Source: Escherichia coli (GTDB lineage Bacteria; Pseudomonadota; Gammaproteobacteria; Enterobacterales; Enterobacteriaceae). From it: a stretch of 31,624 nt of DNA. Position 1 is the first letter of the stretch. The number at the start of each line of letters is the position of its first letter. Of the stretch, positions 22,911 through 23,708 are shown one piece after another. The translations under genes and the position numbers were made by a program. The notes beneath the pieces were generated by a model, which did not search any database, was not told where the DNA came from, and saw nothing but the letters and a program-made list of their open reading frames with translations. Location of the stretch: assembly GCF_003334765.1 (NCBI RefSeq), contig NZ_QOWT01000039.1. The stretch is one strand, 5' to 3'.

Positions 22911-23708
22911 TTACCCCGGTTGTCACCCGGATCATAGTCACTTGATGTGACTATGATCCGATTAATACTCTCTCCGCTACGCAGTGTTGTAGATCAATTG
23001 CGCACTATCATTGAAATAATTACCTGCTAGTGATTATTTCAACCTACTGAATTTCATCTAATTTTTTTCACTCTATGGCAAATTAGCCATTTCAAACATT
23101 ATCATGGCTGATATTTTCCGTAGTCAGGTTTAATGTTTTAAAAGTGCTGTGGGAAAGTGAACAAAGAGTTCCGTAAGCGTTGATGCTATGGGCGGTTAAA
23201 TAAGTAATCCGGGTTCATTTTTTTGCAACTGGCGTTGATTACATTGCATAAATATCCGTGTCTCCAGACGCTATATAAAAACCTGAAGACATGAATGCGT
23301 TATTTACTCAGGTAATTTCAATGCGTTAAAAGAAAGCTGGCAATCCAATTGCCAGCTTAAGTCGAAACAAGGAGACTCGATATTTAAATCGGATTACATT
23401 TTAACTTTAGTAATATTCTTCAGAGATCACAAACTGGTTATTGATAACTTATTCTTGGGCAGTAATCCGCAAACGTTAACTTTTTGTTTGCTATTTACAA
23501 GCTGATAACAACCAGGAATCTTACTTAGGATCAATATATGGAGTGCGTGATGGATAAATCTGAAGTATTGATTAGTGTTAATAGACGTATTAGTTCACGA
23601 AGGGTAAAGTTCTTATAGGCGTTTACTATATTGAACAACGATTCGGACAAGGATGTAAATAATGAAAAGGATGACATATTCGAAACGATAACGGCTAAGG
23701 AGCAAGTT

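Follow-up and report, generated by a model that had tools for sequence, protein, structure and literature searches.

The perfect inverted repeat that lies between hdeD and gadE in the Escherichia coli DNA analysed here (a single stretch of 31,624 nucleotides, hereafter the window), together with the UCUUUU tract that follows it on the minus strand, is almost certainly the Rho-independent (intrinsic) terminator of arrS, the gene for the small RNA ArrS. The element has the features of an intrinsic terminator at the levels of both sequence and 3' end, namely a stable, G+C-containing stem, a U tract and a mapped RNA end. This terminator is already known, and there is nothing new in its identity: according to a 2024 NAR paper (PMC11979758), ArrS has a Rho-independent terminator. 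Reading the sequence alone was thus enough to recognise correctly where a known regulatory RNA ends, and for specialists in ArrS and gadE the present analysis adds an allele of the stem that is diagnostic of the strand, a conservation boundary at the U tract, an IS200 insertion, and the finding that ArrS has no Rfam family.

The DNA of the window is of the E. coli K-12 type, and a 3-kb stretch of NC_000913.3 was collinear with it (offset 21842), the sole single-nucleotide difference being at position 24662. The following features were placed around the hairpin.

22338-22910, plus strand: hdeD (RefSeq NC_000913.3)
23328-23397, minus strand: arrS ncRNA (b4704, 'small regulatory RNA ArrS'; RefSeq NC_000913.3, 3657985-3658054)
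23328-23397, plus strand: cis target of ArrS, a stretch of the longest gadE 5' leader with full complementarity to the sRNA (literature)
23404-23410, minus strand: putative -10 element of arrS, C (-13) followed by TAAAGT (-12 to -7), upstream of the G start at 23397 (sequence)
23709-24236, plus strand: gadE coding sequence (RefSeq NC_000913.3)
24335-24425, plus strand: gadF (RefSeq NC_000913.3)

The arrS gene is located on the strand opposite gadE, within the hdeD-gadE intergenic region, and its 70-nt product has the sequence GUAAUCCGAUUUAAAUAUCGAGUCUCCUUGUUUCGACUUAAGCUGGCAAUUGGAUUGCCAGCUUUCUUUU. The published mutation C7G agrees with the C found at position 7 of the annotated ArrS sequence, and the annotated 5' end at G 23397 is likewise in agreement with the published C7 numbering. 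Within the putative -10 element, the T, the A and the final T of the hexamer and the C at -13 were invariant across the genus. A C at -13 is typical of sigma-S promoters, and its presence in the putative arrS promoter agrees with the reported sigma-S dependence of ArrS.

No family of Rfam 15 matched the ArrS region, even at E values up to 1, and the identification of ArrS therefore rests on the RefSeq annotation and the literature. Among the RefSeq E. coli genomes examined other than MG1655, arrS was not annotated under the matches to the region. The search of the whole window with Rfam found only GadY, two copies of AgrB, ES205 (GadF) and ES036. The small RNA gadF, which derives from the gadE 3' UTR, matched ES205 (RF02754, 105 bits) over 24354-24425; the other matches, from the search at the gathering thresholds, were as follows.

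5787-5827, plus strand: ES036 (CssrF)
14605-14688, plus strand: AgrB copy with an 11-bp perfect terminator stem
14836-14919, plus strand: AgrB copy with an 11-bp perfect terminator stem
30204-30317, plus strand: GadY

The arms of the inverted repeat, written on the plus strand, are AAGCTGGCAAT (23334-23344) and ATTGCCAGCTT (23348-23358), each of 11 nt, 100% complementary to each other and separated by a spacer of 3 nt. Read on the minus strand, the hairpin is AAGCTGGCAATTGGATTGCCAGCTT and is directly followed by the tail TCTTTTAACG. The parts of the element are listed below.

23334-23358, both strands: 25-bp palindrome including the loop (inverted-repeat search)
23348-23358, minus strand: 5' arm of the ArrS terminator stem, AAGCUGGCAAU (repeat search and folding)
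23345-23347, minus strand: terminator loop, UGG in ArrS and CCA in plus-strand RNA (repeat search and folding)
23334-23344, minus strand: 3' arm of the ArrS terminator stem, AUUGCCAGCUU (repeat search and folding)
23328-23333, minus strand: U tract, UCUUUU (sequence and Term-seq ends)

An earlier sequence-only reading of this DNA had described an 11-bp perfect stem with a 3-nt loop about 350 nt upstream of the gadE ATG, and the hairpin was found as described, its end lying 351 nt upstream of the ATG at 23709; the span proposed there, 23322-23358, corresponds to the hairpin plus the complement of its T-rich tail. Five of the 11 pairs of the stem are G-C, and the element was the top terminator-like site in a consensus scan of the surrounding 3 kb. 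The hairpin and UCUUUU make up the last 31 nt of annotated arrS, the 3' end of the gene being the last U of the tail. The tract directly adjoins the stem and consists of U at five of its six positions; it is short, broken by a C and followed by AA, and is weaker than the tracts of textbook terminators and most tails of Hfq-dependent sRNAs.

The folding energy calculated for the hairpin RNA was -15.5 kcal/mol, against -6.9 ± 2.2 kcal/mol in dinucleotide shuffles (z = -3.91), and none of 200 shuffles was as stable. When the whole 70-nt ArrS was folded (-20.2 kcal/mol, z = -3.8), the terminator was the dominant helix. A scan of the 31.6-kb window for perfect stems of 11 bp or more, with loops of 3-10 nt, gave six distinct places, and the expectation from shuffling was 0.11 hits per dinucleotide-shuffled window, a figure to be set against the 10 hits that the same way of counting gives on the real window. 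Since stems of this length are far rarer in the shuffles, the hairpin is not a chance feature. The other places in the window with such stems were the following, all from the stem scan.

14200-14230: perfect stem of at least 11 bp
14659-14685: perfect stem of at least 11 bp in an AgrB copy
14890-14916: perfect stem of at least 11 bp in an AgrB copy
19882-19910: perfect stem of at least 11 bp
22928-22960: perfect stem of at least 11 bp just downstream of hdeD

RNA 3' ends were taken from the Term-seq data for MG1655 (Adams et al. 2021, eLife, Supplementary file 1) and converted to window positions.

23328 (3657985), minus strand: 982,952 reads in M63 glucose at OD 0.4, classed as primary, arrS
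23327 (3657984), minus strand: 171,112 reads in LB at OD 2.0, classed as primary, arrS
23362 (3658019), plus strand: minor end with 1,432 reads, in M63 only, 4 nt past the palindrome and within the long gadE leader

The minus-strand ends coincide with the last U of UCUUUU (23328) or lie one base beyond it (23327), as RNA 3' ends and not as termination events, which Term-seq does not map, so that trimming from a longer transcript could give the same end. Neither arrS end was listed by Term-seq for exponential LB (OD 0.4), and this pattern of conditions fits the reported dependence of ArrS expression on sigma-S, GadE and acid, and its induction in stationary phase. In the interval 3657900-3658399 of the genome, the weak plus-strand end was the only other 3' end listed, and a Rho termination region was not listed, the Rho data (bicyclomycin) being from exponential LB, in which ArrS was not detected.

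Two neighbouring elements also have ends in the same data. A 14-bp perfect hairpin (22928-22960, plus strand) begins 18 nt past the hdeD stop codon, and a plus-strand 3' end was mapped at 22964, 4 nt after this stem and without a U run; this hdeD end looks like a non-canonical or processed one. The 3' end of gadF was mapped at 3659081, corresponding to position 24424 of the window.

For conservation within the species, a 66-nt query with the hairpin at its centre was searched in 5,426 complete E. coli genomes. The hairpin was present in 5,412 of them, as a single copy (median, 1 place). The query region was identical to that of K-12, with T at 23357, in 4,090 genomes, and a second allele, T23357C on the plus strand, was carried by 1,292 genomes (about 24% of E. 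coli) and also by E. albertii. In ArrS RNA this change converts an A-U pair to G·U, by which all 11 pairs are kept (-15.2 kcal/mol), and in plus-strand RNA it creates an A·C mismatch, by which 9 pairs are left (-13.5 kcal/mol). The sole common variant of the stem is therefore diagnostic of the strand: pairing is kept in the minus-strand RNA and lost in the plus-strand RNA.

The proposal of the sequence-only reading that this is an intrinsic terminator on the reverse strand, antisense to the gadE leader, is thus supported by the annotation, by Term-seq, by the 2024 NAR paper and by the stem variant. Its suspicion that the hairpin might form the 3' end of ArrS proved correct, in that the arrS annotation ends at the last U, and reverse-strand ends, which it had suggested looking for by term-seq at about 23320-23330, are present within that interval.

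Comparison beyond E. coli was made by a scan of species representatives with a degenerate pattern for the gadE start, from which six Escherichia loci were used (E. albertii, E. whittamii, two genomes labelled E. coli and two further Escherichia species) and nine unrelated chance matches were left out. These six loci were aligned with the window and with strain KE51. Throughout the eight sequences, the hairpin, the loop and the U tract were invariant except for T23357C. Strong conservation across species started exactly at the U tract and continued through arrS, and such a step is the pattern that would be expected at a gene boundary. The DNA just past the ArrS 3' end (about 23200-23327) was rich in indels among Escherichia species, with length differences of roughly 100 nt. 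Compensatory covariation was sought in the eight sequences and none was found, 10 of the 11 pairs being invariant and one varying on one side only; the comparative data therefore do not prove the fold, and support for the structure is thermodynamic and experimental. The overlapping gadE leader also constrains the region of the hairpin.

One strain, AH21H052 (NZ_CP196264.1, 792-1508), was found to carry an IS200C element, about 0.7 kb long, between the positions corresponding to 23331 and 23332, that is, within the ArrS U tract. The insertion leaves the hairpin intact and splits the tract, and the tnpA gene of the element is on the opposite strand. The end of IS200C in this strain bears a hairpin of its own, CCCCCAGC-TAG-GCTGGGGG, and ArrS transcripts of AH21H052 would run into this end.

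The alternative that survives best is that the palindrome has its main role, or an additional one, on the plus strand, as a hairpin that stabilises the gadE leader or generates a 3' end in it, or as a weak bidirectional terminator or attenuator of transcripts that start at a distal gadE promoter or read through from hdeD. We consider this unlikely. The plus-strand hairpin of the K-12 allele is predicted to fold equally well (-16.0 kcal/mol), the plus-strand end at 23362 is situated 4 nt beyond the stem, and the hdeD hairpin has a like geometry, its 3' end also being 4 nt past the stem with no U run. However, the plus-strand sequence that follows the stem, AAGUCGAAAC, contains no U tract, reads for the plus-strand end were about 700 times fewer than for that of the minus strand, and the T23357C allele weakens the hairpin of the plus strand only; moreover, a stalled exonuclease, or RNase III cleavage of the duplex between ArrS and the leader, could account for the 23362 end equally well. 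A plus-strand role may be regarded as a possible minor secondary property of the palindrome, of low probability. Similarly doubtful is a combined reading in which the palindrome is a dual-strand element, the minus strand terminating and stabilising ArrS and presenting a regulatory UGG loop (for fepA, without pairing), and the plus-strand hairpin making the minor 23362 end and thereby truncating or attenuating gadE leader transcripts from the distal promoter. Were this the case, one 25-nt palindrome would tune both the sense and the antisense partner, and the G·U/A·C alleles and the IS200 insertion would shift the balance between strains.

It is very improbable that the palindrome is instead a protein site at the DNA level, either a -24/-12-like element of sigma-54 or an operator for a dimeric transcription factor in the gadE control region. 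A match to TGGCA-N6-TTGC was found on both strands (23338-23354; plus strand TGGCAATCCAATTGC, minus strand TGGCAATTGGATTGC), and many regulators and nucleoid proteins bind the gadE control region. The sigma-54 motif is nevertheless not significant, since two matches stand against 0.5 expected, 10 of 100 shuffles also reach two, and both matches come from one palindrome; in addition, gadE, hdeD and arrS are not mentioned in the main texts of the papers on sigma-54 ChIP-seq and RpoN genomic SELEX, and the terminator fully explains the data on RNA 3' ends. The specific sigma-54 promoter pattern TGGCAC-N5-TTGCW was rejected as probably fortuitous, its core motif occurring at chance frequency and binding going unreported in those main texts. 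Operators of the LexA type and others, considered from the sequence, were likewise set aside, as the spacing (CTG-N13-CAG) does not fit.

The probability is negligible that the inverted repeat arose by chance or is a dispersed, REP-like element and has no specific function: palindromes do occur in AT-rich intergenic DNA, but this reading is excluded by the highly abundant RNA 3' end with which the hairpin exactly coincides, by its single copy per genome, by its near-invariance across the genus (one stem change) and by the rarity of such stems in shuffled windows.

If the hairpin is the terminator of arrS, as we conclude, its action may be pictured from the general mechanism of intrinsic terminators. 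RNA polymerase would transcribe from 23358 to 23328, and the nascent 11-bp stem would form behind a weak rU:dA hybrid. Melting of this hybrid would then release ArrS at 23328/23327. In mature ArrS, the stem-loop and U tail would constitute a 3' module that guards against 3' exonucleases, and may also be the end bound by Hfq, as in other Hfq-dependent sRNAs; ArrS was found to be Hfq-associated in RIL-seq. ArrS thus appears to carry the structure of the 3' module of an Hfq-dependent sRNA, with a putative contact between Hfq and the tail.

ArrS is an sRNA of the E. coli acid-resistance island that is induced by sigma-S and GadE. It is the cis-antisense, Hfq-associated sRNA of the acid fitness island (Aiso et al. 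2011, 2014). According to the literature, the whole of ArrS pairs in cis with the longest gadE leader to form a substrate of RNase III, the processing is linked to higher expression of GadE, and an RNase III site is located in ArrS. In trans, ArrS pairs through its 5' part with the 5' UTR of cfa, and RIL-seq groups ArrS with the Hfq-associated trans-acting sRNAs. In PMC11979758, a mutant of the ArrS terminator loop loses repression of fepA at an ArrS level that is not lowered, control of fepA by ArrS depends on Hfq and RNase E, and no direct pairing with fepA is reported. ArrS connects acid resistance, through gadE, with the modification of membrane lipids, through cfa, and with iron uptake, through fepA, the terminator hairpin being part of that connection, and through the role of its loop in fepA control the terminator has already been noticed as more than a terminator.

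When compared with annotated ArrS, the element of the window has the same locus, sequence, strand, coordinates and 3' end, and it bears the K-12 allele of the stem. Like the terminators of Hfq-dependent sRNAs, that of ArrS combines a stable stem, here of 11 bp, with a small loop and a U-rich tail, and the RNA ends where this tail ends; it differs from them in that the tail is short and interrupted by C and the stem is relatively rich in A/U at both ends. GadY (Rfam RF00122; 30204-30317 in the window) resembles ArrS in being encoded in the same island, sigma-S-dependent, Hfq-binding and cis-antisense, and in also acting in trans. Each of the two RNAs overlaps the mRNA of a gad regulator, and processing linked to RNase III raises the expression of its target; GadY overlaps the 3' UTR of gadX, whereas ArrS overlaps the 5' leader of gadE, and only GadY has a family in Rfam. 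In SdsR and RseX, as in ArrS, mutation of the terminator loop abolishes repression of fepA. The loop of OxyS pairs directly with fhlA, whereas for these three RNAs a direct pairing with fepA was looked for and not found; the ArrS loop has only 3 nt (UGG). The ArrS terminator belongs with those of SdsR and RseX in a recently described set of terminators whose loops matter in regulation.
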